From the sequence record PZ242158.1: a stretch of 64,000 nucleotides of DNA; one strand, given 5' to 3'. The notes beneath the pieces were generated by a model. The model searched no databases, was not told the DNA's origin, and saw nothing but the letters and a program-made list of their open reading frames with translations. Position numbers and translations under genes: made by a program. Numbering within the stretch: position 1 is the first letter of the stretch; every line of letters starts with the position of its first letter. This DNA comes from a phage. Positions 2,880 to 28,277 of this stretch are shown here, piece by piece.

Positions 2880-5303
2880 ATGAGCATGTGGTCGTTCGAT
2901 TTTGAGTCATCCGGTTTGCTGGAAGACCCAGATCTTTATTATCACTGCGGCCTGTTTAAAGAGCTGAATAAGAACCGTTTTATGCTGTTCCTTCCTCTGA
3001 ATGACCGCACACACTACTCCGAGGAGGATATAGAGAAGGCCAAGAACTTTATTCTGGCAAAGAAAACTCTTTATAAGGATTTTGAAGTTCGCATAGCAGA
3101 TTTTTCGGAGTTGGAAGGTTGGCTTACAGGAAATTCCGACTGGTCACCAACAGCTTTGAACTGCCATAACTGCTACAGTTATGACTTTATGCTGATGGAG
3201 AGATTATCCGGTATTCATTTTGATATGTTCCGTGATCCTAAATGCATGGGGACTATCAACGACCACCAGGTTAACCTGTTTGATACGTTGGCTATGAGCC
3301 GAATCTTGTGGCCTGATCGCCCTTTACCAAAAGGTTGTCCGGACGCTGTATTCAACCCGGTTACTAAGAAAATGCAACCTGTTGGTCCTCACGGCCTTAT
3401 GGCATGGGGCTACGCCCTTGGTAACCAGAAAGTTCAAATTGATGACTGGCGCGATCTTCCGCTGTGGAAATATGTGGATCGTGTGTTCGAGGACGTTATC
3501 ATCCAGGAGTTGCTCTGGAAAGAGTTGGTAGCGGAATCAAAAGGTGTATTCTACGGCAAATCTGACATGCAGAACTTTATGTATGACCCTGCCAAAGAGA
3601 AGCCTAAAGGATTCAAGAAGATTACCTGGAAGAATGCATTACGCCGAGGCATGCTGCAGCATTTCCTGATGGAGCTGCAGGCTCGACAGGGTGTGTATTT
3701 CGACATAGATGGGGCTATTGCTTTACGTGACCGCTGCGATGCGTGGATGAAAGAGATCGCTGATCGTGTTGAACCACAACTTCCTTTAAAAGAGTTATCA
3801 ATGTCTCAGCGGCCTAAGTTCCCTGAAAAGCCGTTTAACCAGGATGGGACAATCTCCAATAATGGTTGGAAATGGTTAAAAGACAAGCTTGGCTACCCTG
3901 TGGACATGAGTGCTTTAGAATTCAAAGCTCCTCCTAAGCGAGCATTTACCTCCACAGGAGATGTCAGTAAGATGGGGATAAAATGGTGTGAAGAGATGGG
4001 CTGTAAAGACCCTGACAAGATGGCGGATTTCTTGAGGGGCTATATCAAGGGCACCTCCACACCACAACCTTTACCTAAAGAGCTAATGGATCAGGCAATA
4101 AGTGATCTACAGCAGAAGCGAATGCCTGACTGCAAGATACCTATGAAAATCAGTAATCAGGACGATATTAAGCGATACCTGATCAGTGCTGGTTGGCTTC
4201 CGACAATGTGGAGAACTAAGGATGTAACTAAAGACAGCAAGAAGAAAGCTCTACCTGATGCAGATGTTGATGCACGAGTGTATGCATATATGGACGAGCT
4301 TTTAGAGTCAGAGTATTGTGACCTAATTATCAACTTCTGGAACAAAACTGATGCTAAGTTCCAGACAACCGTGCACAAGTTCCGAAGCTTTCCTAACTCC
4401 GAAAGGATTAAAAAGGAAGTATTCGGGAAAATACGTAGAAAAGCTAGGGCACTTATTACTTCTCCGCAACTGAAAGATACGTTTGGACACCTATGCCCGA
4501 ATCTTGAAAAATTGAACGGAGAGATGGCTAAAGATATCGTCTTGTGGTTATCATTGCGAAACCGCAGATCGGTCCTTGATCCAATCAAGGAGGATAAGGT
4601 TGATACTGGTCTTCTTAATCACCCACGTTTGAAGATTGACCATAAGCTTCCTGCTAAAAGTTCTGGATTAACAAACACTTCCCGACAGAAACACAGTATT
4701 TGTGCAAACATGCCTAAACCATCTCCTAAAGTGGTTATGGGTAAAGAGATGCGTAGTCTGTGGGGTGTTCCTCCAGGATACTTTGAGATCGGTATTGACG
4801 GGTCCAACTTAGAGCAGCTTATCGGGGCTTGGGGTGCCTTTGAGTTCGACAACGGCCTGTATTACGATGTTGTAAGTAACGGGGACGCACACCAAAACAA
4901 TGCTGAGGCATATACAAAAGTAGCAGGTAGAGAGGTGTCTCGTAACGACGGTAAACCTATCACGTATGGGGTTATGTATGGGGCACAAAAAGATAAAGTT
5001 GCAGATATGCTGGACATCTCTCCAGAGTTGGGACAAAGGGTAATCGATGCACTCTGGGATGCCAACCCTGGTCTTAAGGGGCGTAAAGAAGATCTGGAGA
5101 AATTCTGGGAAGCAACGGGTAAGAAGTTTATCTACTCTTTTGATGGTCATGCTATCTGGACCCGATCTAAACACTCTTTACTTAATGCATACCAACAAAA
5201 TGGCGGCGCATCGTTGTGTGACTTAGTTGGGATACTCATGCACCATCAAATGGTGAAGCGTGGGTGGTACGATGAAGGTGTTCGTCGTATTATCTATTAC
5301 CAT
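2880..5303 (+). CDS. DNA polymerase, family A, exon 1
   Basis: AAGGAG RBS; exo motifs FDFESSG and HNCYSYD; motif B KPITYGVMYG; ORF stops one codon after the His where motif C (HDE) is expected. Confidence 0.8.
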
Positions 5304-15130: not shown

Positions 15131-15730
15131 TACTTGAAAATTTCTGGCATATCAAGTATAAGGGGGATTTCTAAAATGGATTTCCTCCTTTTTGATATTT
15201 CACCAGGCCAGATATTTTAAAATTCTTAGAAAATCAGAAAACGGATAGAAAACTAAAATGGATTTTTCAGGGTAGACACGATGAGCTGAGCCACTCATCC
15301 TATCGTTTGCGTCATATTCCGGGCTACCATTCCAGATTTTCCGCGTATGCTCACACCCTTCTACCAGAACTTTCCCACTCGCCCTTGGCCTTTTATGGCA
15401 ATAATCCAGCCACTATCTTGAAGTTGCGGTACAGCTCTCCAAGTACTCGATCTGTTTTTCGTTTCAAAGATTGAATTTTCTGAAAATTTTTCTCGATAAA
15501 TTTCTCAGTACTCGATCTGTTTTTCGTTTTCTGAATCGGATTTTCTGGAAATCGTTCCAGCTCTCGACCTGAAATTTTTGGGGACGAAATCGATTTTTCG
15601 TTTTCAGAAATGGATTTTTAAAATTTCTATATGGGAATATTTTATGGGATACTGTTTTATAGGAAATTGTTACGGAGGGTAATTAGCATGCTAATTAAAT
15701 TTATTAAATGCGAGGAGTTCTCATTTAGAA

Positions 15731-17073: not shown

Positions 17074-17101
17074 TTGACACGCTGCAAAATTTAAGTAAAC
17101 T
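17074..17101 (+). promoter_or_regulatory. sigma70-like promoter followed by 5'-UTR hairpin
   Basis: TTGACA, 16 bp, TAAACT; then GGCGGGAATGTTTCCCGCC stem-loop before the RBS. Confidence 0.5.
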
Positions 17102-17149
17102 AGACACAAAAGGCGGGAATGTTTCCCGCCAACACAAAGGAAAAAGATC

Positions 17150-17554
17150 ATGAATAAGAACGTACGCCGCATCATGAATGAACTGGCAAACGATGAAAAA
17201 ATTATTGACATGCATTTGATCAACATTTGCCGCCGTTGTGTAACATATAACAACCGCGCCGCAAAAGCGCGTGAGATGAACGCAAAAGGCACCTTAAAGC
17301 CATTCCAGGTGGTGGTAAAGGCCATTAAAGATGTAACTAATACGGCAAACCAGGTACAGGGGAGCACCAACGAGAGTACCAATATTGATCCGGCTTACAT
17401 CATGAAACGGATCCGGACCTGCAAGAACAAAGAGCAAGTGTATAATGTCATAGACTGGTTGGATTCTATGGGCGATGTGGTGTACAATAGATTCTCTGCA
17501 GCTATTGAGATCCAGCTTGACAGGTTAGACGGTAAAGTACTTAAAACTTACTAA
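17150..17554 (+). CDS. hypothetical protein
   Basis: AAAGGAAAAA RBS; no domain. Confidence 0.6.
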   Translation: MNKNVRRIMNELANDEKIIDMHLINICRRCVTYNNRAAKAREMNAKGTLKPFQVVVKAIKDVTNTANQVQGSTNESTNIDPAYIMKRIRTCKNKEQVYNVIDWLDSMGDVVYNRFSAAIEIQLDRLDGKVLKTY

Positions 17555-17555
17555 A

Positions 17556-17600
17556 TTTATTTTTAGATGGCCTTGACTCCAGGGCCATCAATAAAGTAAA
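17556..17600 (+). repeat. 44-bp conserved intergenic element, copy 1
   Basis: TTATTTTTAGATGGCCTTGACTCCAGGGCCATCAATAAAGTAAA right after a stop codon; 7-bp inverted repeat GATGGCC/GGCCATC. Confidence 0.6.
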
Positions 17601-17634
17601 TTAATCTCAGCTAAGCGAAAAAGGGGGCTTTAAG

Positions 17635-17754
17635 ATGAGCACTACACGCCAATACACAAAGGTAACTATTATCGCCTGCGTTGTCGGTTACATCCTGGCG
17701 CAAATGTTAATGAGCAGCGCTAACAGTTTTGCAAAATTTTTCTTAAATTTTTAA
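17635..17754 (+). CDS. small hydrophobic peptide (39 aa)
   Basis: AAGGGGG RBS; MSTTRQYTKVTIIACVVGYILAQMLM...; below the ORF-track size cutoff. Confidence 0.4.
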   Translation: MSTTRQYTKVTIIACVVGYILAQMLMSSANSFAKFFLNF

Positions 17755-17782
17755 TTGACAAGCTAACTTAGATTGATATACT
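17755..17782 (+). promoter_or_regulatory. sigma70-like promoter followed by 5'-UTR hairpin
   Basis: TTGACA, 16 bp, TATACT; then CGGGAAAACTTCCC stem-loop. Confidence 0.55.
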
Positions 17783-17833
17783 TAAACACGTAAACGGGAA
17801 AACTTCCCAGAGCACACAAAAGGAGAAAACACC

Positions 17834-18175
17834 ATGACTACTATGACCGCCGCAGAAAAAGCTATTCAGATCGCCGCACTGAAAAAACAGATCGCAGACC
17901 TTGAGAACAAGATCGATAACTTTGAAATCGACGAGGACAAGTACGACGAAAACTATGATGAATGGTTAGACGAGATCTACGGCGAAATTATGATCGGAAA
18001 CATTTCTTTTCTTCCGTCGCGTATCCTCAAGGAGCTAGATCCTATCGCTTACCGCTGCGGATTTAGCGACTACATCGACAGCCTGGATATTGAGGACGAT
18101 GAAGAATACCAGGAATTACAGACAGAGTTAGAAGAAGCAAAAGAAGAGCTTGCAGAACTGGAAGAAAACGAGTAA
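17834..18175 (+). CDS. acidic coiled-coil protein
   Basis: AAGGAGAAAA RBS; Asp/Glu-rich C-terminus. Confidence 0.6.
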   Translation: MTTMTAAEKAIQIAALKKQIADLENKIDNFEIDEDKYDENYDEWLDEIYGEIMIGNISFLPSRILKELDPIAYRCGFSDYIDSLDIEDDEEYQELQTELEEAKEELAELEENE

Positions 18176-18177
18176 GA

Positions 18178-18221
18178 TTATTTTTAGATGGCCTTGACTC
18201 CAGGGCCATCAATAAAGTAAA
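18178..18221 (+). repeat. 44-bp conserved intergenic element, copy 2
   Basis: Identical to copy 1, again directly after a stop codon. Confidence 0.6.
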
Positions 18222-18264
18222 CTTTATACTGTTAACACTGAACTAATGCATAGGAGTTAAAACC

Positions 18265-18510
18265 ATGGCAGCACTAATCACCAAATATTATGCCCCTACC
18301 AACACCAAAAGCGCCCGTATCATGGTAAAAGGCTTCGGACGTAAAAAGGTGTACACCTGGGATTATGCCTTAGACACGGAAGACAACTACACCAACGCGA
18401 TGACCGATTTTATTAATGATCTGAACACGCGGATCTTGACAAATTATAAAATTACCGATATTGCCTATATAGGGGAAGGCGGGATCTGTTTTGTCGGTAT
18501 CGTCAAATAA
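18265..18510 (+). CDS. hypothetical protein
   Basis: TAGGAG RBS; no domain. Confidence 0.6.
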   Translation: MAALITKYYAPTNTKSARIMVKGFGRKKVYTWDYALDTEDNYTNAMTDFINDLNTRILTNYKITDIAYIGEGGICFVGIVK

Positions 18511-18585
18511 GCTGTTTTTTCGGTGGTCCTGGTAGCAGGGCCATCTATAAAGATAGTTTATCAATACAATGAAAGGAGAAAGTAC

Positions 18586-18939
18586 ATGATCAGCGGGGCA
18601 AGTTTTATTATTGGCGCTATTGCTACGGCTTTAATTGTAAACAAGATCCAATCTAAAAACGAAAAAGATAGCAACGCCCTTACAGAATACCCGTTTTGGG
18701 TATTCAACGACAATGAAGACTATATTATCAAGTACAAGAATGAGAAGGGCGACCAGGTAACACCGCGACCGATCCCGGCTTACAAGATGCAAGAAACACT
18801 ATACCGCCTAAAGGCTGGAGGCGCAAAAATCGTAGACTTTTGGGGATACGATCACACAGATCAGGAAGTTATAAAGCGCCGTATCCGGGCTATTCAGGCC
18901 AATATTGAAGTTAGCAAGGGGGGAATATATGAAGATTAA
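18586..18939 (+). CDS. membrane-anchored protein
   Basis: Internal Met after AAGGAGAAAG RBS; N-terminal hydrophobic helix. Confidence 0.55.
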   Translation: MISGASFIIGAIATALIVNKIQSKNEKDSNALTEYPFWVFNDNEDYIIKYKNEKGDQVTPRPIPAYKMQETLYRLKAGGAKIVDFWGYDHTDQEVIKRRIRAIQANIEVSKGGIYED

Positions 18940-19126
18940 TTTTGAGAAGATTGTAAAGCGATCTCATGCTTCCGAAGAGCTGCCGGAACGCCGCCAGCGC
19001 AACAATAAACTGAATAAGCCAAAAAGATTTGGGAAGATCTGGCGAAATCATTATGATCGCAAATTACCGGGCCTGCTTTTGGAACGTGAACGACAGGCGG
19101 AACGATACCGCCACAAAGGCAAATAA
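18929..19126 (+). CDS. small basic protein
   Basis: Internal Met; Arg/Lys-rich. Confidence 0.45.
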   Translation: MKINFEKIVKRSHASEELPERRQRNNKLNKPKRFGKIWRNHYDRKLPGLLLERERQAERYRHKGK

Positions 19127-19134
19127 CAACCAAC

Positions 19135-19163
19135 GCCCCGCCATTGTGCGGGGCTTTTTATTT
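19135..19163 (+). terminator. rho-independent terminator
   Basis: GCCCCGC-CATTGT-GCGGGGC stem-loop followed by TTTTTATTT. Confidence 0.7.
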
Positions 19164-19307
19164 CTATCCTACGAATAGCGCCCCCGGTTGGCCCTGTAAG
19201 CGCCAAAAAGGCCCCACCTATGCAATCGCCCCCCTTTAACCTGAAAACATCGCTTAGGGCCGTTTTATGGCGTTAAAAATATCATTGACAGTGATTTTAT
19301 TTAAAGC

Positions 19308-19335
19308 TTGACATCTTAAACAGGTTAGCTATACT
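19308..19335 (+). promoter_or_regulatory. sigma70-like promoter
   Basis: TTGACA, 16 bp, TATACT. Confidence 0.55.
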
Positions 19336-19367
19336 AACCACATCAAAGAGAGAAAGGAGTAAACGCC

Positions 19368-19628
19368 ATGCGTAAATTAAAAAATTTTGATAAAGTTGAT
19401 GTTGTCCTGAATAATTTTTACTACTGCAACAACAAGGCCATTTGGTGGCGTGATAGTTCCACCGATAAAGTTAAAGCTCGCTTTCTCCAAGGGCACTGGC
19501 AAGGCCGTCCAGTGATTAAAATACTGGGGCAACTGGTAGCGTTTAAAAATTGCCGCCGTGTTGATGACGTTGAAGAGATCTTGAACATTTTACGCCACAA
19601 TAATTTAAAAAATAGTGTTGACAAGTAA
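19368..19628 (+). CDS. hypothetical protein
   Basis: AAAGGAG RBS; no domain. Confidence 0.55.
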   Translation: MRKLKNFDKVDVVLNNFYYCNNKAIWWRDSSTDKVKARFLQGHWQGRPVIKILGQLVAFKNCRRVDDVEEILNILRHNNLKNSVDK

Positions 19629-19645
19629 ATCTCGATAAGTATACT
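19618..19645 (+). promoter_or_regulatory. sigma70-like promoter followed by 5'-UTR hairpin
   Basis: TTGACA, 16 bp, TATACT; then GGCGGGAAAACTTCCCGCC stem-loop. Confidence 0.55.
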
Positions 19646-19702
19646 TAAACACACAGGCGGGAAAACTTCCCGCCACTAACAAAGAAAATAGGAGAAAATA
19701 TC

Positions 19703-20326
19703 ATGACCACCGTTAACATTACCACAGGTTACAATTTATCTTTCGACGTGCTGACCGACGAACAAAAAGAAAAAGCTATTGAAATGGTCCGCGAAAGAGA
19801 AGAACACAGCGGGGATAATTTTTTTGCAGAAAGTGTAATTGAACACTATAAAGAATATGTCTTTCCAGAGTACGGCCTTGAAGATACCGAAGTACGTTGG
19901 TCCGGCTTTTGGTGTCAAGGCGATGGCGCGTCAATCAGTGCTGAAAACGTGGATTTAGAAAAATTCTTGCGTAAAGTAAAGGCCCTGACCAAGTTCCGAT
20001 CAATTCGTCACTTGTTCGGCACAATGCACGATGGCGAGTTATCAGCCAGTGTTGAACGTATCCCGTTTAGCCATTATCATCACGAAAACACAATAGGAGG
20101 GTGCATCGATACTAATTGGCTAGACCTGACCACCAAGCAAGAGGACAAAGTTGAAGAGCTGGAAGAGCTGATCACCGAGACGGTACGGGAGCTATCCCGC
20201 AAGGTTTACGTAGACCTGGAGGAGGCCTATCTTGAACAGTTTACTACCGAAAACCTGATCGGCCTTATTGAAGCCAATGATTGGCGGTTTGATGTGGATG
20301 AATATGGGGAGATGAGTTTTTCATAA
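19703..20326 (+). CDS. hypothetical protein
   Basis: TAGGAGAAAA RBS; 207 aa; no confident domain. Confidence 0.6.
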   Translation: MTTVNITTGYNLSFDVLTDEQKEKAIEMVREREEHSGDNFFAESVIEHYKEYVFPEYGLEDTEVRWSGFWCQGDGASISAENVDLEKFLRKVKALTKFRSIRHLFGTMHDGELSASVERIPFSHYHHENTIGGCIDTNWLDLTTKQEDKVEELEELITETVRELSRKVYVDLEEAYLEQFTTENLIGLIEANDWRFDVDEYGEMSFS

Positions 20327-20416
20327 ATAAAGTGTTGCAATAATCTAAAAACCTGCTATATTAAAAACTCAAGGGGCGAGATGACTTGCCCCCCACAAAA
20401 CAAAGAGGAAAACATC

Positions 20417-20797
20417 ATGAAAAACACTACTAAAGCTATTGACACCGTTATGTTTAACCTGGTTACATTCCGTGAAGATATGAAAGATCTTCCACGTGAA
20501 ACAGTGTGCGACCATATCGAAAACTATCGCAAACTAATCAAAGAGTTGCCTTTAAAACGTGACCAGTACGCGGCTAACGCTATGCTTAACGCCATGATCA
20601 AAAAGATGATCCAGTGTGATTTAACTCTGGCCTATGATTATGCAGGCGGTCGTTTTGCAGTATACAATCAGCCCGTGCCCGGTATGAGCACCACCGAAGA
20701 ATTGCACGCGTTAAATCTGAAACAAGATGTATGGGATAACATGCCCCGCGTGGTGGTGTGGGCAGAAAGCGGAAAGATTTACGGCGATAATTTTTAA
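20417..20797 (+). CDS. hypothetical protein
   Basis: Internal Met after AAGAGGAAAACATC (track ORF begins 20381). Confidence 0.55.
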   Translation: MKNTTKAIDTVMFNLVTFREDMKDLPRETVCDHIENYRKLIKELPLKRDQYAANAMLNAMIKKMIQCDLTLAYDYAGGRFAVYNQPVPGMSTTEELHALNLKQDVWDNMPRVVVWAESGKIYGDNF

Positions 20798-20861
20798 TCA
20801 GGTAACAGGCGGCATATTTGCCGCCTTATTGTTAAACAGAACTGCAAAAGAGGTACATAGA

Positions 20862-21233
20862 ATGGAATTTATTATTTTGGCTGTAGTAGTTGCCTTGTTC
20901 AACGCCTGGATCGCTGGCAAGATGGGTAGATCCGCTTTTTTATGGTTTATTATATCTATTTTCCTGGGGGTGGTTGCAACTATTGTACTTGTTATCCTTG
21001 CAATTGTTGACAAGGGGAATAATAGAAAGGGTAAAGTATTTTCAGACCTGTACGACGCTCAAACATTTGTCAACGCCTACTACAGCGATCTTCCAGTCTC
21101 CCTACGTTGCAGCCTTGCACAACAGGTTTTCGATGAAGCTAAAACCAGAGATCACGCCCATGAGATTTGTTTAACTGAGGCGGATCGCCTATTTGAGAGG
21201 AATAGAAAATATGTGGACCAGCCGTTTAAATAA
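20862..21233 (+). CDS. membrane protein
   Basis: Internal Met after AAGAGG; two hydrophobic helices. Confidence 0.5.
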   Translation: MEFIILAVVVALFNAWIAGKMGRSAFLWFIISIFLGVVATIVLVILAIVDKGNNRKGKVFSDLYDAQTFVNAYYSDLPVSLRCSLAQQVFDEAKTRDHAHEICLTEADRLFERNRKYVDQPFK

Positions 21234-21432
21234 TGCCACGTTAATTAACCCCTTTAGTGAAGATTTGAAGCCAGCCGCCTGGCGGGATGGATTCAATAAC
21301 GAAAGCTTTATTTTCAGGCCTGATCTTAAGGAATTTTATAACAATGGATCGAACAACGACAGAGATAATTTTTCTTGTAATGTGCGTGGTGATAATACTC
21401 CTGGGAGCCATTGCAAACCACGTCACTGCTAA
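21211..21432 (+). CDS. hypothetical protein
   Basis: Met after AGAGGAATAGAAAAT; overlaps the upstream gene end; uncertain. Confidence 0.3.
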   Translation: MWTSRLNNATLINPFSEDLKPAAWRDGFNNESFIFRPDLKEFYNNGSNNDRDNFSCNVRGDNTPGSHCKPRHC

Positions 21433-21452
21433 CAGGAGGAAAGGGGGAGACG

Positions 21453-21572
21453 ATGACACCCAAGGATAAGCCCCGCACCGATAAGGCGCGCCGTGTTATG
21501 GTATGGCTTGAGATCATCGCCCTTGAAATATTGTTAGGCGTAGGGATGTATTTTATCGCTGTAAGTAATTGA
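21453..21572 (+). CDS. small hydrophobic peptide (39 aa)
   Basis: AAAGGGGGAGA RBS; MTPKDKPRTDKARRVMVWLEIIALEILLGVGMYFIAVSN; followed by terminator. Confidence 0.4.
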   Translation: MTPKDKPRTDKARRVMVWLEIIALEILLGVGMYFIAVSN

Positions 21573-21575
21573 TAA

Positions 21576-21615
21576 CGGCCCCGATCCCTGGGGCCTAACT
21601 TTTCAAATTTTTTTT
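21576..21615 (+). terminator. rho-independent terminator
   Basis: GGCCCC-GATCCCT-GGGGCC stem-loop followed by T-rich tract. Confidence 0.55.
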
Positions 21616-21713
21616 CTCCCTGAGTGTTGCAATCCGATCCAGAATATGGATAATAACAATCAACGGGGAGACACTCCCCACCGCATAGACAAAGTTCCAA
21701 AAGGAGAAACAAA

Positions 21714-21914
21714 ATGAGCAACAATATCCGCGTTATTAACTTCAAAAAAGAAGAAAAAATTGCCGTGCTGATTGACGGTCAAGAAATCTTTAAAGGTGAT
21801 TATGAAGATCATCAAACGGCGATTAGTATCACTCGCGTGATTGGTTACCATAATTTTTACCCTCAAGGCGCTGAGGCAGCAGTAAAACTAATTAAAGAGA
21901 TTGTAGGCCTGTAA
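21714..21914 (+). CDS. hypothetical protein
   Basis: AAAAGGAGAAACAAA RBS. Confidence 0.55.
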   Translation: MSNNIRVINFKKEEKIAVLIDGQEIFKGDYEDHQTAISITRVIGYHNFYPQGAEAAVKLIKEIVGL

Positions 21915-21916
21915 AA

Positions 21917-21961
21917 TTTATTTTTAGATGGCCTTGACTCCAGGGCCATCAATAAAGTAAA
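21917..21961 (+). repeat. 44-bp conserved intergenic element, copy 3
   Basis: Identical to copies at 17556 and 18178; directly after a stop codon. Confidence 0.6.
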
Positions 21962-22005
21962 TTTAAACCCTGTTAAAATAATCAGTGCAAAAAGGAGTAA
22001 TGATC

Positions 22006-22305
22006 ATGTTTATCCAGGCTAATAATCTTTATTTCTTTGATGGTCAGATCGTAGACGGCGTGGAGGTGGAAATCACCGGGTGCCCTGGCGGTCAGGTTAT
22101 GACTTTTCGGAATAATGCCTTTGATGATTCTCATATCGTTATGAGAATGGAAGTTAGTAAGCTGGATGACAAGAAAACACTCATTGATTATTCCGTGAAA
22201 GATCATCCAGACTACCACATGATCTATGGTGATTTGTGCATTGTTGACCGTGACAAGGTGGGCGGCATTGTGATCGCTATTGTGAACGATGTTTTCTCAA
22301 ACTAA
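22006..22305 (+). CDS. hypothetical protein
   Basis: Internal Met after AAAAGGAG RBS (track ORF begins 21985). Confidence 0.55.
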   Translation: MFIQANNLYFFDGQIVDGVEVEITGCPGGQVMTFRNNAFDDSHIVMRMEVSKLDDKKTLIDYSVKDHPDYHMIYGDLCIVDRDKVGGIVIAIVNDVFSN

Positions 22306-22322
22306 TTTCAGCAGGTGATTTT

Positions 22323-22673
22323 ATGAAAGTAAAACTATATTACCTTAATGAGCTTAACCCCCTTGCCCAGGTCCGCGCCCTGGCTAATACCTTGATTTGT
22401 GAGAAATCTGTATATTGTGTTGAGCTTAACTCCATGCGTGAACGTCTCAAAGGTGGTTACTTTGACATCCATGCTGCAATCAACGGCCTGAATATGGAAT
22501 TTATCCGCTTACGTAACAGCCGCCAGAATCTGGCAAGAATGGAACAAGATCCGGCCCACCTTCGTAAGCTGGTTATTGAAAATCATCTAATGTTTAATGC
22601 CGATGGTGATTATTACCATTTTCACCGTAAACGCTGGTACCGTAGCGGCAATATAGGAAAGAATGCAAAATAA
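22323..22673 (+). CDS. hypothetical protein
   Basis: ORF followed by terminator; no domain. Confidence 0.55.
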   Translation: MKVKLYYLNELNPLAQVRALANTLICEKSVYCVELNSMRERLKGGYFDIHAAINGLNMEFIRLRNSRQNLARMEQDPAHLRKLVIENHLMFNADGDYYHFHRKRWYRSGNIGKNAK

Positions 22674-22708
22674 GGCCCCTGGCAGGGCCTGCAGCGATAT
22701 AATCACAT

Positions 22709-22742
22709 AAAGGCTATGCGGTTGCATAGCCTTTATTATTTT
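22709..22742 (+). terminator. rho-independent terminator
   Basis: AGGCTATGC-GGTT-GCATAGCCT stem-loop followed by TTATTATTTT. Confidence 0.7.
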
Positions 22743-22879
22743 GGCGTTACAGCGGCCCCCAAGGCGCTTAAAAAATTTTTAAAGAAGTACTTGCATCAAG
22801 TCCTACAATATGGATAATAAAGGGTGTCGGGGGGCGGTGAGGCCTCCAATCATTAACCGGATAGATAGGAGTTAAAACC

Positions 22880-23164
22880 ATGGCTATTGTTACCGTTGGC
22901 GATGTAGTAGAAATGGAAGCCAAATACTTAAAAGCTGGTATGCATATCATACGGAATGATCAAGAATTGTTATTAACCATGGTTGAATATAATCCCGGTC
23001 AGGATTATCCAAGCATTGACTACTTTTTCCAGTATGTTGATGAAGAATTAAAAGAGGATGAGGCTTATCAGGGTGAATTTTGTAATTTCTTTTGCCCTGA
23101 TGAGGTTGTAAAAGTTATCTATCAACCTGGCGTACCTTTCCCGCTGCACGCTATCAACAAATAA
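22880..23164 (+). CDS. hypothetical protein
   Basis: TAGGAG RBS; followed by ACCTGGCGGGGCC box and GGGGCC-GAAAA-GGCCCC hairpin. Confidence 0.55.
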   Translation: MAIVTVGDVVEMEAKYLKAGMHIIRNDQELLLTMVEYNPGQDYPSIDYFFQYVDEELKEDEAYQGEFCNFFCPDEVVKVIYQPGVPFPLHAINK

Positions 23165-23219
23165 ACCTGGCGGGGCCGAAAAGGCCCCCAATTATGAAAA
23201 TAAAGAGAGGCAAATCATC

Positions 23220-23453
23220 ATGATGGAACAAATTAAACGCGCCGAGGCTATTAATGGCAACGTGATCTATTTTGTCAGCAAAAACGAAAAAGGCGTACCC
23301 TATGCGGCGGTAATAGTACAGCCTGACGGCGATTATTGGTGTACTGTGTACGGCGCTTATTCTTTTGGGCGTCCAGTGCATGATAAAATTTTGAAAGTAG
23401 CGAACCCTACCGGGAAAAATATCACAGCAGAAAAATTTTTTGAAAATAGTTGA
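23220..23453 (+). CDS. hypothetical protein
   Basis: AGAGAGG RBS. Confidence 0.55.
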   Translation: MMEQIKRAEAINGNVIYFVSKNEKGVPYAAVIVQPDGDYWCTVYGAYSFGRPVHDKILKVANPTGKNITAEKFFENS

Positions 23454-23476
23454 CATGACCATATAAGACTGTAGTA
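23449..23476 (+). promoter_or_regulatory. sigma70-like promoter
   Basis: TTGACA, 16 bp, TAGTAT; then GGGGC-AA-GCCCC hairpin. Confidence 0.5.
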
Positions 23477-23524
23477 TATAAATCAAAGGGGCAAGCCCCA
23501 CCAACCACAAAGAGGATAAAAATC

Positions 23525-23704
23525 ATGGCTATTATTGCAAAGACTGAGATCGTAGGCTTGGATTCTATTCTCCTCGCATATGAGGAAGCTATAGAAATGT
23601 ATGTGGTTTCCTATGGTGAGTATATCCGTGAATATAAATCTATTGATCTGGCTTTTGAATGTTATATTCGCCAGGTTAATAAAGCGTACGATGATTATCG
23701 TTAA
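23525..23704 (+). CDS. small protein (59 aa)
   Basis: AAAGAGGATAAAAATC RBS; below track cutoff. Confidence 0.45.
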   Translation: MAIIAKTEIVGLDSILLAYEEAIEMYVVSYGEYIREYKSIDLAFECYIRQVNKAYDDYR

Positions 23705-23794
23705 AATAGTTTGAAAACAAACAACCATCTTACAAAGCATAATACATAAGGCGGTGGAATGGTCCGCCACCTGGAACAAGAAGAGGAAAACAAA

Positions 23795-23899
23795 ATGAAA
23801 CAGAAATTAATTGATGCGGTGATCCTGGTTATTGCCCTGGGTATTGGCCTGATTGCAACCATGGCTAATGTGATCTTGTCTTCCAACGGTATCGGGTGA
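23795..23899 (+). CDS. small hydrophobic peptide (34 aa)
   Basis: AAGAGGAAAACAAA RBS; MKQKLIDAVILVIALGIGLIATMANVILSS. Confidence 0.4.
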   Translation: MKQKLIDAVILVIALGIGLIATMANVILSSNGIG

Positions 23900-23908
23900 G
23901 GTTGGCAA

Positions 23909-24124
23909 ATGATCACTAACAAAACAGGCAAAACGGAATTTTTACGCAACTTACAGATCGGCAAGCCTGAGATCTGGTATTGCACTAAAACACCACGTGA
24001 CGAAATGAAAGACTTCACCGCCACGCTGCAACGGGTAAAGATATCCATCACGCAGAAAAAGGCCTTGATAGTGGTGGAAGGTGAGATCCCTCAAACCGTT
24101 GTTATAGTTGAGCGTACAGCATAG
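23909..24124 (+). CDS. hypothetical protein
   Basis: ORF directly after upstream small gene. Confidence 0.5.
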   Translation: MITNKTGKTEFLRNLQIGKPEIWYCTKTPRDEMKDFTATLQRVKISITQKKALIVVEGEIPQTVVIVERTA

Positions 24125-24215
24125 TTTAATTTATACCGATACCCGAAAATTAACCAACAAAGCATAAACAGGCGGTTACCGCCGCCTTAAACGTAGCAGA
24201 AAGAGGATAGACACA

Positions 24216-24500
24216 ATGAAAAAGATGATCGCAGTGGTTGCCCTGGTTGTTGGACTTAATGCGCCTGTAATGGCTAAAGAGCTGGCAAAAGAGGTTGATC
24301 TAACGGATATCCATGCCGTCAATCAAATCGGGGTTACTTATCGCTTATGCCTTGCCGCTAAAACTTTTAATGACGGCACAACAGAGTACTACGGATTCGA
24401 GGGTATCCGGTGCGGTGAGCTTGCTCGCGACCTTAAGGAAGATCCAGACCTGGAAGATCTGCCCATCACCGTAAACGGTAAAGCTTACGTAAACCGTTAA
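24216..24500 (+). CDS. secreted or periplasmic protein
   Basis: AAAGAGGATAGACACA RBS; signal-peptide-like MKKMIAVVALVVGLNAPVMA. Confidence 0.55.
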   Translation: MKKMIAVVALVVGLNAPVMAKELAKEVDLTDIHAVNQIGVTYRLCLAAKTFNDGTTEYYGFEGIRCGELARDLKEDPDLEDLPITVNGKAYVNR

Positions 24501-24502
24501 CC

Positions 24503-24637
24503 ATGAGAAAGATAATCATCACCTTGGGGATTGTGGCGGGATCGCTGGCGCTCTTTCTCCTTATGGTTAGGTATGTGCTGATCGGTATTGTCCTGGTAGT
24601 CAGTGATCTATTGGAAACGGTTGGCACCTTGTTTTAA
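24503..24637 (+). CDS. small hydrophobic peptide (44 aa)
   Basis: Start 2 nt after upstream stop; hydrophobic throughout. Confidence 0.4.
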   Translation: MRKIIITLGIVAGSLALFLLMVRYVLIGIVLVVSDLLETVGTLF

Positions 24638-24649
24638 AGAGCGGTAAAA

Positions 24650-24841
24650 ATGAATATCGAACAAGTTAGAAAGGTATTGGCGGTACTGCGTTATCATAAT
24701 CATAGAAAGGTCATAGACGATCCTGATTATGTCGATTCAAGCCTGGAAGGGGATACACTACAAGCCATAAGTAATATGCAAGAATTGCTAAAGCGCATGA
24801 CAGAGAAAAACCGACCGGACTACATAGGCGAAAAAATATAA
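24650..24841 (+). CDS. hypothetical protein
   Basis: ORF followed by terminator. Confidence 0.5.
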   Translation: MNIEQVRKVLAVLRYHNHRKVIDDPDYVDSSLEGDTLQAISNMQELLKRMTEKNRPDYIGEKI

Positions 24842-24857
24842 TCCTTATAAACTACAA

Positions 24858-24887
24858 AACAGGGCTTGCAATGGTCCTGTTTTTTTG
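24858..24887 (+). terminator. rho-independent terminator
   Basis: AACAGG...CCTGTT stem followed by TTTTTTT. Confidence 0.55.
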
Positions 24888-24900
24888 TTATACTTGTTTC

Positions 24901-24948
24901 ACGGCAGGCACCTGGCGACGGGGGGAGACAATCACCGGGTGTGCCTGC
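24901..24948 (-). repeat. inverted copy of the CCGGTGATTGTCTCCC element
   Basis: Reverse complement closely matches copy B core at ~15905-15945. Confidence 0.5.
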
Positions 24949-27045: not shown

Positions 27046-27284
27046 TGCTTTTATATTATGTCATATATTATTAACTTGTTAATTGTTAGTCAGTCAAATC
27101 AACAGCGTTATCATTTCAGTCTTTATTGTTGTTGATCGTTATTGTTATCATGCAAACGAATGGCATGGCTTATCATCTCTGTATAAACAGTTTATGCGTG
27201 AACAGTGAGGCATGCAATAGTAACAATTGTTATTGTGTCATCATGTCAAGGGTAAAGTGTCATAGTATGTCAGACATGTTTTTC

Positions 27285-28277
27285 CCCTCTTTGTCAAGTG
27301 CTGCATGAAAAAATTTACAAGCTGGTATGGTAGCATTTTTGCGGCCTTGTTTACATTCAGGAGTGTATGTATAATCCTTGTTGTGTGGGCGTTTATACGT
27401 CTGGACGGTCAGAAGTCTGCAGGTTAATATCTAATCTATTGGCTGCTAACTATATCCCACACAAATGATAAGAAATATAATTGTTATATGCGTAAACTGT
27501 AACTCATGTTATCAATCCCTGTATGTATCGCCAGTGGTGCGCATAATGGGTATTATGTTAAATTGCCCGTAATGATAACAGTTCTCACAATGATAGGTAT
27601 TCTCATTCATCCACACAAAATAGGTTGCAAATGTTGTGCCACTGTGTGAACGGCCTGGCCTATTAATTTCTCTCACTGCCTCGATATTTGAGAATTGTTA
27701 TAAGAATGAGAAGTATCCATGTTTATATTACATCTACTTGGTTCAGAACCAAAATGCGCGAAAGCGTTTCACGATAACTAGCGACCACGGTCTGTTCCCT
27801 GGCGGCCATACGGCTTCTACTGAACGCAGCAGAGGGCGATAATCCCCTCTTTGTCAAGTGCTGCATGAAAAAATTTACAAGCTGGTATGGTAGCATTTTT
27901 GCGGCCTTGTTTACATTCAGGAGTGTATGTATAATCCTTGTTGTGTGGGCGTTTATACGTCTGGACGGTCAGAAGTCTGCAGGTTAATATCTAATCTATT
28001 GGCTGCTAACTATATCCCACACAAATGATAAGAAATATAATTGTTATATGCGTAAACTGTAACTCATGTTATCAATCCCTGTATGTATCGCCAGTGGTGC
28101 GCATAATGGGTATTATGTTAAATTGCCCGTAATGATAACAGTTCTCACAATGATAGGTATTCTCATTCATCCACACAAAATAGGTTGCAAATGTTGTGCC
28201 ACTGTGTGAACGGCCTGGCCTATTAATTTCTCTCACTGCCTCGATATTTGAGAATTGTTATAAGAATGAGAAGTATT
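27285..28277. repeat. tandem direct repeat: two near-identical ~430-bp copies (about 27285-27717 and 27845-28277) separated by ~128 bp
   Basis: Long stretches read identically at a ~560-bp offset; each copy contains promoter-like TTGTTT-17-TATAAT. Confidence 0.7.

Follow-up and report, generated by a model that had tools for sequence, protein, structure and literature searches.

A conserved sense-strand hairpin between early genes of rV5-like phages as a candidate RNase III processing signal

RNase III sites of bacteriophage T7 (R0.3, R0.5, R1, R1.1, R1.3, R4.7 and R18.5) lie between genes on the sense strand of polycistronic messenger RNA (mRNA), and those from R0.3 to R1.3 belong to early mRNA made by the E. 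coli RNA polymerase (RNAP). A second system is said to have been described by Panganiban and Whiteley in 1983 in the Bacillus phage SP82, a large myovirus in whose early region repeated and conserved intergenic hairpins are reportedly cut, in the early mRNA, by a double-strand-specific RNase of the host, the B. subtilis RNase III; host and enzyme are both other than those considered here. Substrates of the E. coli enzyme typically span about two helical turns, the minimum distance from the cut to the tetraloop is 11 base pairs (bp), and internal loops limit cutting to one phosphodiester, leaving a 3' hairpin that protects against exonucleases (Pertzev and Nicholson, PMC1540722). A third system, the promoter-early stem-loops (PeSLs) of the T4-like phages RB49, phi1, PST and nt-1, consists of short conserved intergenic cassettes in an ORFan-rich and plastic region (PMC2839356, PMC4122927). 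Here we present a 44-bp element that is repeated between small early genes in a 64,000-nucleotide stretch of phage DNA (sequence record PZ242158.1, hereafter the window), and compare the RNA hairpin that it encodes with these systems.

A selected sense-strand hairpin in four early spacers

The 44-mer TTATTTTTAGATGGCCTTGACTCCAGGGCCATCAATAAAGTAAA occurs in three exact copies on the plus strand of the window (17557-17600, 18178-18221 and 21918-21961), and no match to it arose in 100 dinucleotide-preserving shuffles. We call these main copies M1, M2 and M3 (together M) and a fourth, diverged copy D. A repeat finder extends the identity of M1 and M3 to 50 nucleotides (nt) and places D at 18509-18558 with 68% identity over 50 nt, its core spanning 18512-18556. 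A sequence-only reading of the window had already reported the three exact copies and a diverged relative at about 18519-18560; both observations are real, with the coordinates of the first and third copies one base off and the position of D corrected. Every copy begins 2-3 nt 3' of a stop codon, in agreement with the 2-4 nt given by that reading, and the next start codons (17635, 18265, 18586 and 22006) follow 29-44 nt past the elements rather than at the 35-75 nt it had proposed. All four copies lie between small genes inside 4.4 kb of an early ORFan region.

Escherichia phage rV5_ev156 matches the window at 99.5% identity, and over 100 further Vequintavirus genomes do so at 90-97%; the DNA belongs to an rV5-like Vequintavirus, a phage of E. 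coli. BLAST recovered the 44-mer from 121 phage records, usually three times in each and at 98-100% identity, and the D type, one per genome, from 118 phage records; the copies occupy the same four loci in all genomes. Outside Vequintavirus neither the M nor the D type was found at the sensitivity of BLAST, and 5,426 complete E. coli genomes hold zero copies. On the sense strand of the 64-kb window, a covariance model of the element matches only the four copies (68-82 bits on the plus strand, 31-44 bits on the minus strand), and it finds no copy in the remaining 72.8 kb of rV5_ev156, the closest complete genome. An Rfam search of the element returned nothing relevant at E up to 10, an IMG/VR scan with the right arm gave mostly chance matches in unrelated coding DNA, and Tandem Repeats Finder reported nothing between 14800 and 29000. 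We also observed that 17 GenBank records (MG0656xx) labelled 'Campylobacter phage', with Campylobacter jejuni as host, are about 95% identical to E. coli Vequintaviruses, and this host label looks doubtful.

A fundamental question is what is conserved in these spacers. Folded as RNA, the plus strand of the 44-mer forms one extended hairpin of -19.6 kcal/mol (z = -5.5), and the core of D adopts the same shape at -21.6 kcal/mol, compared with -13.6 (M) and -8.5 (D) kcal/mol for the minus strands. When 3 nt are added on each side, the structure becomes ((((((((((..((((((((((....))))))))))...)))))))))), a 50-nt hairpin in which an A/U-rich lower stem of 10 bp, formed by the flanking T-rich and A-rich arms, is joined through a 2x3 internal loop (UA/AAU in M, UC/UAU in D) to a G/C-rich upper stem of 10 bp capped by a tetraloop. 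The helix length is 10 + 10 bp in M1, M3 and M2 (in M2 with one mismatch) and 9 + 10 bp in D, or about two turns (~20 bp). The upper stem of M, GAUGGCCUUG/CAGGGCCAUC, contains one G-U pair and closes on a 4-nt loop, so that the inverted repeat noticed by the sequence-only reading is present, not as the 7 bp around a 10-nt loop that were described but as this longer stem; the upper stem of D, GGUGGUCCUG/CAGGGCCAUC, contains two G-U pairs. M1 folds into a single hairpin with a minimum free energy (MFE) of -22.4 kcal/mol and the MFE of D is -24.3 kcal/mol; the element covariance model scores M1, M2, M3 and D at 82.2, 79.5, 81.0 and 68.1 bits, respectively. M2 carries G(-1):C(45) where M1 and M3 have A:U. 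Pair probabilities computed in 200-350 nt of mRNA context average 0.97-0.98 for M1 (0.97 within 350 nt), D and M3 (0.98). In M2 the mean is 0.73, with a stable upper stem and a less certain lower stem that has competing pairings. The coordinates of the hairpins and of the features discussed below are presented in Table 1.

Table 1. Positions in the window of the hairpins, predicted cuts, promoter-like patterns and surrounding intervals.
Feature	Position	Strand	Detail
M1 hairpin	17554-17602	+	lower stem 17554-17563/17593-17602; upper stem 17566-17575/17580-17589
M1 loops	internal UA 17564-17565 / AAU 17590-17592; tetraloop ACUC 17576-17579	+	from the fold
M1 predicted RNase III cut	between 17592 and 17593	+	inferred
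M2 hairpin	18175-18223	+	anatomy as M1; one A-A mismatch in lower stem
M2 predicted RNase III cut	between 18213 and 18214	+	inferred
D hairpin	18511-18557	+	lower stem 9 bp; loop GUAG; without TTGAC
D predicted RNase III cut	between 18548 and 18549	+	inferred
M3 hairpin	21915-21963	+	identical to M1 over 50 nt
M3 predicted RNase III cut	between 21953 and 21954	+	inferred
Sigma-70-like pattern, M1	17573-17602	+	TTGACT, 18-bp spacer, TAAATT; start expected near 17609
Sigma-70-like pattern, M2	18194-18223	+	-10 TAAACT; start expected near 18230
Sigma-70-like pattern, M3	21934-21963	+	start expected near 21970
Operon context	17074-19154	+	sigma-70 promoters 17074-17101 and 17755-17782; intrinsic terminator 19135-19154
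Cassette M1-M2	17601-18221		621 bp; 39-aa open reading frame (ORF), promoter 17755, 113-aa ORF

Protein-anchored scans for further copies gave few loci (2 in IMG/VR and 4 in metagenomes), and for this reason variation was gathered from GenBank phage records singly, which yielded 74 copies from 21 genomes and 46 distinct 56-mers, 43 of them aligned gap-free. RNAalifold returns the same 20 pairs as the proposed structure. Standard pairing is observed in 98.4% of the 860 pair cells of the 43 copies and falls to 34-55% if each 3' partner is shifted by 1-3 columns. Compensatory changes are seen at four lower-stem pairs (A-U/U-A, U-A/G-U/A-U/G-C, U-A/C-G and G-C/A-U), with two-sided changes in 30 cells across those pairs, and the covariation score was reached by none of 500 shuffles. 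The four variable pairs of the upper stem exchange only G-U with G-C or A-U, changes that would leave C-A mismatches on the opposite strand, and therefore only the plus strand folds well. Many of the pair changes separate the M class from the D class and therefore represent few evolutionary events; inside the D class alone, C-G is replaced by U-A and G-U by A-U or G-C.

Among 12-18 aligned genomes, nucleotide diversity is 0 at the conserved positions of the stems and 0.02-0.05 for the M hairpins taken whole, compared with 0.14-0.19 at third codon positions, 0.11-0.21 in the spacers 3' of the M copies and 0.065 in the spacer after D. Changes in the M copies fall at positions 3 and 4 of the tetraloop (ACTC, ACTT, ACCC, ACAC, ACGC and ACAT), at the base that opens the 3' side of the internal loop (G in place of A, or one A more), at the closing pair (G-C to G-U) and in the lower stem, where G-U becomes A-U and variable pairs are found at the base. 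Neither the right arm CAGGGCCAUC nor the WAUAAAG segment varies in the M or the D class. These observations show a strongly selected, genus-specific hairpin with four copies per genome, and the selected object is the sense-strand RNA hairpin, not a duplex-DNA palindrome.

Resemblance to the RNase III sites of T7

How does this hairpin compare with the T7 sites? The T7 GenBank records do not show RNase III features, and the comparison was built on ten cleavage coordinates that we take to be those of Dunn and Studier (1983). Eight of the ten fall on hairpins and seven at the same structural position, and these seven sites served as the training set, R6.5 and R13 having failed. T7 R1 folds into a lower stem, UA, a 9-bp stem, a tetraloop, AAU and the returning lower stem, while an upper stem of 9-12 bp followed by UAU is found in R0.3, R0.5, R1.1 and R18.5, and CAU in R4.7. 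In all seven sites the cleavage coordinate is the last base of that triplet. The element resembles these sites in being a two-turn hairpin with a small asymmetric internal loop, an upper stem in the range of 9-12 bp, a small loop, and AAU or UAU on the 3' side.

The resemblance may extend in part to the boxes by which E. coli RNase III substrates are described. The optimum for the distal box is UA/UG, and its U:G pair is stringently needed in a minimal substrate; the proximal box has A:U or U:A at position 2, tolerates neither G:C nor C:G at positions 2 and 4, with G:C at position 4 blocking catalysis, and works best when position 1 is G:C and position 3 is A:U (PMC1540722). These boxes were mapped onto R1.1 by the pair numbers in the text of that work (A9:U30, U12:G27, C13:G26 and the GCAA loop) and not by its figure. 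On this mapping the distal box of M falls on U18:A25 and U17:G26, eight pairs above the internal loop, and R1.1 has U16:A23 and U15:G24 in the same register; the D copies have C:G in place of U:G. Position 2 of the proximal box is A11:U32 in M, in keeping with the A:U/U:A rule and again in the R1.1 register. Position 4 is an A-A mismatch in M (C-U is the other mismatch seen) and U-C in R1.1, and therefore no G:C is present there.

A covariance model derived from the seven T7 sites was run with filters off over the window (128 kb searched), and its best four matches were the four elements, each on the plus strand and at full length. The scores were 24.5 bits for M3 (E 0.0024), 22.3 for D, 21.0 for M2 and 20.5 for M1, with rough E values of 0.0024-0.026, whereas about 170 kb of control DNA reached at most 14.6 bits in the phage's other 72.8 kb and 14.8 bits in unrelated viral contigs (96 kb). 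On T7 itself the model returned an untrained match at 18506-18570, just 5' of gene 6.5, with 24.5 bits, the score of the best element; this match is probably the true R6.5 site, and the coordinate that we had used for it, 18852, was wrong. In the reverse test, the best match of the element covariance model in the whole T7 genome is the R1 site.

We hypothesize, with confidence a little above even, that the element is a T7-like RNase III processing signal on early polycistronic mRNA made by the host RNAP. Processing was one of three options put forward by the sequence-only reading, and it is the option favoured by the sense-strand hairpin, the covariation, the T7 architecture and box register, and the recovery of the element by the T7-derived model. 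We infer both RNase III cleavage and an effect on message stability by analogy with T7. Host RNase III would recognise the hairpin as it does in the T7 early sites and would cut once, immediately behind the WAU triplet that forms the 3' strand of the internal loop. The internal loop lies directly below the 10-bp stem and tetraloop, as expected for a single-cut substrate, and the cut predicted from it would separate the cistrons and leave the upstream message with a protective 3' hairpin by which it would be stabilised.

Five of the six ORFs driven by the strong sigma-70 promoters at 17074 and 17755 are separated by M1, M2 and D: the promoter at 17074 precedes a 134-aa gene, M1 and a 39-aa gene, and the promoter at 17755 precedes a 113-aa gene, M2, an 81-aa gene, D, a 117-aa and a 65-aa gene and the terminator at 19135. 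The operon logic holds without any promoter in the M copies and mirrors the T7 early operon. Pfam and PHROGs gave no function for any of the eight flanking proteins. The 81-aa ORF between M2 and D (18265-18510) has homologues of 43-47% identity in ~60-kb phages of E. coli, Cronobacter and Aeromonas (e.g. CAjan and Skure) and weaker ones in phages of Salmonella, Klebsiella and Pseudomonas (phrog_3199), and is a widely shared small early gene.

Several points weigh against the processing hypothesis. Two of the ten T7 coordinates on which the comparison was built were wrong, similarity between covariance models partly rewards mere hairpin shape, and the reverse match on T7 R1 is weak (12.6 bits, E 4.3, not significant alone). 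Positions 1 and 3 of the proximal box are U:A and G:C, which is non-optimal (T7 R1 itself has C:G at position 3), and D has C:G where the minimal substrate needs U:G and G-U at proximal-box position 2. Moreover, the near-total invariance of the stems goes beyond what RNase III requires and suggests that something else, for instance a promoter, another protein or gene conversion, constrains them as well. The region has dozens of early genes but no more than four sites, all within 4.4 kb, and a literature search found neither Vequintavirus transcriptome or cleavage data nor a link between rV5 and RNase III. The element also differs from the T7 sites in several respects. Little primary sequence is shared beyond GGCC and WAU, the lower stem of the element is nearly pure A/U, its copies are near-identical to one another whereas the T7 sites differ, and a -35-like TTGAC lies in its apical stem and loop; its cleavage is predicted only, and its carrier is an unrelated myovirus of the genus Vequintavirus.

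Promoter pattern, recombination and competing explanations

An alternative hypothesis, which we regard as possible though tentative, is that the element is a PeSL-type composite, in which a sigma-70 early promoter restarts transcription after each ORFan and a stem-loop attenuates or terminates transcription arriving from upstream, as in RB49 and phi1. The layout of a PeSL appears to be matched at this locus, with an upstream stop codon in an AT-rich tract, sigma-70-like -35 and -10 hexamers, a G-T-paired stem-loop able to overlap the -35, a Shine-Dalgarno sequence and a start codon (PMC2839356). The M copies fit the pattern TTGACN-18-TAAAYT with 9 of 12 consensus matches in a promoter scan, two copies are annotated as PhagePromoter predictions in the GenBank record of phage Gotham, and most loop changes spare TTGAC, falling on the sixth -35 position. 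Upstream of the M hexamers lies a AAATTTATTTTT tract, which may resemble the distal UP-element consensus. The flanking genes are all ORFans and, as in PeSLs, where recombination between neighbouring copies deletes the intervening gene or genes, the cassette between two copies has been precisely lost in two relatives.

On the other side, the hairpin is kept where the promoter pattern is not. D retains the full hairpin by compensatory changes, although CTGGTA stands where the -35 would be. M1 of the most divergent genome, an IMG/VR contig with ~85% identity to the window, has the loop ATAAC and an extra A, resulting in TTGATA and a 20-bp spacer with both stems intact, and the spacer of M3 in SYGMH1 is 19 bp. 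The combination of an 18-bp spacer and a 4-of-6 -10 hexamer is weaker than the many nearby TTGACA-16/17-TATACT promoters, and there are only 4 copies per genome. The -35 TTG of the M copies is also part of the distal box in the upper stem and is equally explained by it, and the U-tract for termination is missing. Stems of PeSLs are typically GGGG/CCCC and serve as terminators or attenuators, and are not two-turn hairpins with an internal loop; their sequences vary within a genome, whereas the four copies here are near-identical and one is without a promoter reading; and their promoter and terminator activities have been measured by reporters.

Because the hairpin persists where the promoter pattern breaks (in D and in the copies with 19- and 20-bp spacers) and because TTG doubles as the distal box, the promoter is not the primary constraint on the element. 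The M copies may nonetheless be moderate sigma-70 promoters that could re-initiate transcription. A phage-specific promoter class, another option of the sequence-only reading, finds no support: the M copies fit an ordinary sigma-70 pattern, D is without it, and the natural copy with a 20-bp spacer keeps its hairpin. T7 also has promoters beside or inside its RNase III sites, among them the E. coli promoter C, whose start at 3113 falls within the R1 hairpin; the PeSL composite overlaps with the RNase III hypothesis, and both could hold. Another recurring regulatory module, at 17755-17808 and 19618-19671 (also 17112-17130), pairs a strong sigma-70 promoter, TTGACA-16-TATACT, with a hairpin of the GGGAAAACTTCCC type ~10 nt further downstream; this hairpin would open the transcript and could stabilise its 5' end.

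Identical copies are, by virtue of that identity, substrates for homologous recombination. The cassette from 17601 to 18221 is exactly missing, by BLAST breakpoints, from phiWec189 and from one IMG/VR contig, each of which has a single hybrid element, preceded by the sequence found upstream of M1 and followed by that found downstream of M2. The loops of M1 and M2 are of the same variant within genomes (both ACAC in four, both ACTT in one), which suggests gene conversion and could help explain the near-identity of the copies. Other indels of the region are not bounded by the element. M1 of Gotham is destroyed by a 5-nt deletion, and single copies are therefore dispensable. The genome of rV5_ev146, which has one copy and is ~4.4 kb shorter, was considered as a loss between copies 1 and 3 and rejected, since its deletions (window positions 17144-17646 and 19077-24929) are not element-bounded; they have ~15 nt of overlapping alignment at each junction and removed M1 and M3, and the genes and hairpins lost there are therefore dispensable. 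A 344-bp segment at 22320-22662 with a 116-aa ORF (22323-22673) is absent in Gotham, FV3, SYGMH1, phita32 and two metagenomic contigs and is likewise not bounded by the 44-bp element.

A broader hypothesis, which we hold as rather doubtful, is that one 50-bp module does three jobs, as RNase III insulator, sigma-70 promoter and boundary of a recombination cassette. As RNA, it would cut read-through early transcripts and cap them with a hairpin; as DNA, the same bases would be a sigma-70 promoter that restarts transcription just downstream, with the TTG of the -35 serving as the distal box; and as an exact repeat, it would mark cassette boundaries at which recombination adds or removes ORFans. 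If true, the module would represent convergence on T4-type PeSLs from a T7-type processing signal.

It is unlikely that the element is instead the binding site of some other RNA-binding protein, of phage or host, that governs how stable the neighbouring early messages are or how they are translated, with no cleavage by RNase III; in one version, RNase III itself would act as binder only. The invariance of CAGGGCCAUC and WAUAAAG in both M and D amounts to more sequence constraint than pure structure needs, and to that extent a sequence-reading protein would fit. However, Pfam and PHROGs reveal no candidate RNA-binding protein among the flanking genes, the element ends far enough before the start codons (29-44 nt) to leave the ribosome-binding sites uncovered, and the constrained positions are already explained by the resemblance to T7 cleavage sites.

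An intrinsic or factor-dependent terminator, or a small mobile palindromic element, is very improbable. A stable G/C-rich hairpin right after stop codons would suit a terminator, but on both strands the stem is preceded by the T-tract and followed by the A-tract, opposite to the order in a terminator, with AAUAAAGUAAA following the hairpin on the plus strand and UAAAAAUAA on the minus strand; the sequence-only reading had noticed the missing downstream U-tract and rightly doubted a textbook terminator. The element is also unlisted by a terminator scan, and U-tailed terminators are found nearby, e.g. at 19135-19154. Repetition and recombination junctions would suit a mobile element, but the same four loci are occupied in all genomes, none is found elsewhere in the phage or in the 5,426 E. 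coli genomes, and no target-site duplications were noticed at the copies, although without a systematic check. Least probable of all is a DNA operator, also among the options of the sequence-only reading, in which a dimeric early regulator would recognise a 24-bp palindrome over the -35. A near-perfect palindrome, GATGGCCTTG-ACTC-CAGGGCCATC, does overlap TTGACT and its sequence is kept across about 120 genomes, but each asymmetry between the arms is a G-U pair on the plus strand and a C-A mismatch on the other, two-sided changes that keep complementarity, and thus pairing rather than sequence, would be intolerable for a protein reading fixed bases, conservation reaches into the second, A/U-rich covarying stem, and the minus strand folds much worse.

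Other features of the window and significance

Three further features lie outside the four spacers. An exact 300-bp direct repeat (27283-27582 and 27843-28142, 560-bp spacing) occupies a gene-poor stretch, and both of its copies are matched by the terminal 459-bp repeat_region of Gotham; because that repeat_region stands at the end of the Gotham record, the repeats probably mark a terminal-repeat or genome-end region. An ORF-poor stretch at 15433-15618 holds three imperfect direct repeats of ~47-51 nt that recur at intervals of 65-74 nt with 74-80% identity; Tandem Repeats Finder was silent on them. At 22707-22736, a 13-bp palindromic hairpin, AAAGGCTATGC...GCATAGCCTTTAT, with a T-rich tail is terminator-like, and the T7 RNase III model ranks it fifth, with 17.5 bits on the minus strand and 14.0 on the plus strand.

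The element is, on the processing hypothesis, a known kind of signal that is previously undescribed in this phage family. Phages of the rV5 type are in wide use as candidates for biocontrol and therapy, and their transcript processing is almost unmapped. The rV5 genome paper catalogues 33 promoters and 20 terminators (PMC3606486), and the element is not among them. The T7 sites R0.5 and R1.1 are already in use in synthetic biology (PMC3643576), and the element would add compact, near-identical natural insulator parts to them. If the four hairpins are RNase III sites, an unrelated myovirus would have reached T7's solution for cutting and stabilising early messages made by the host RNAP, and early gene expression in these phages is predicted to be rnc-dependent. 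The precise loss of a cassette between two copies indicates that such signals also shape the gene content of the ORFan region.

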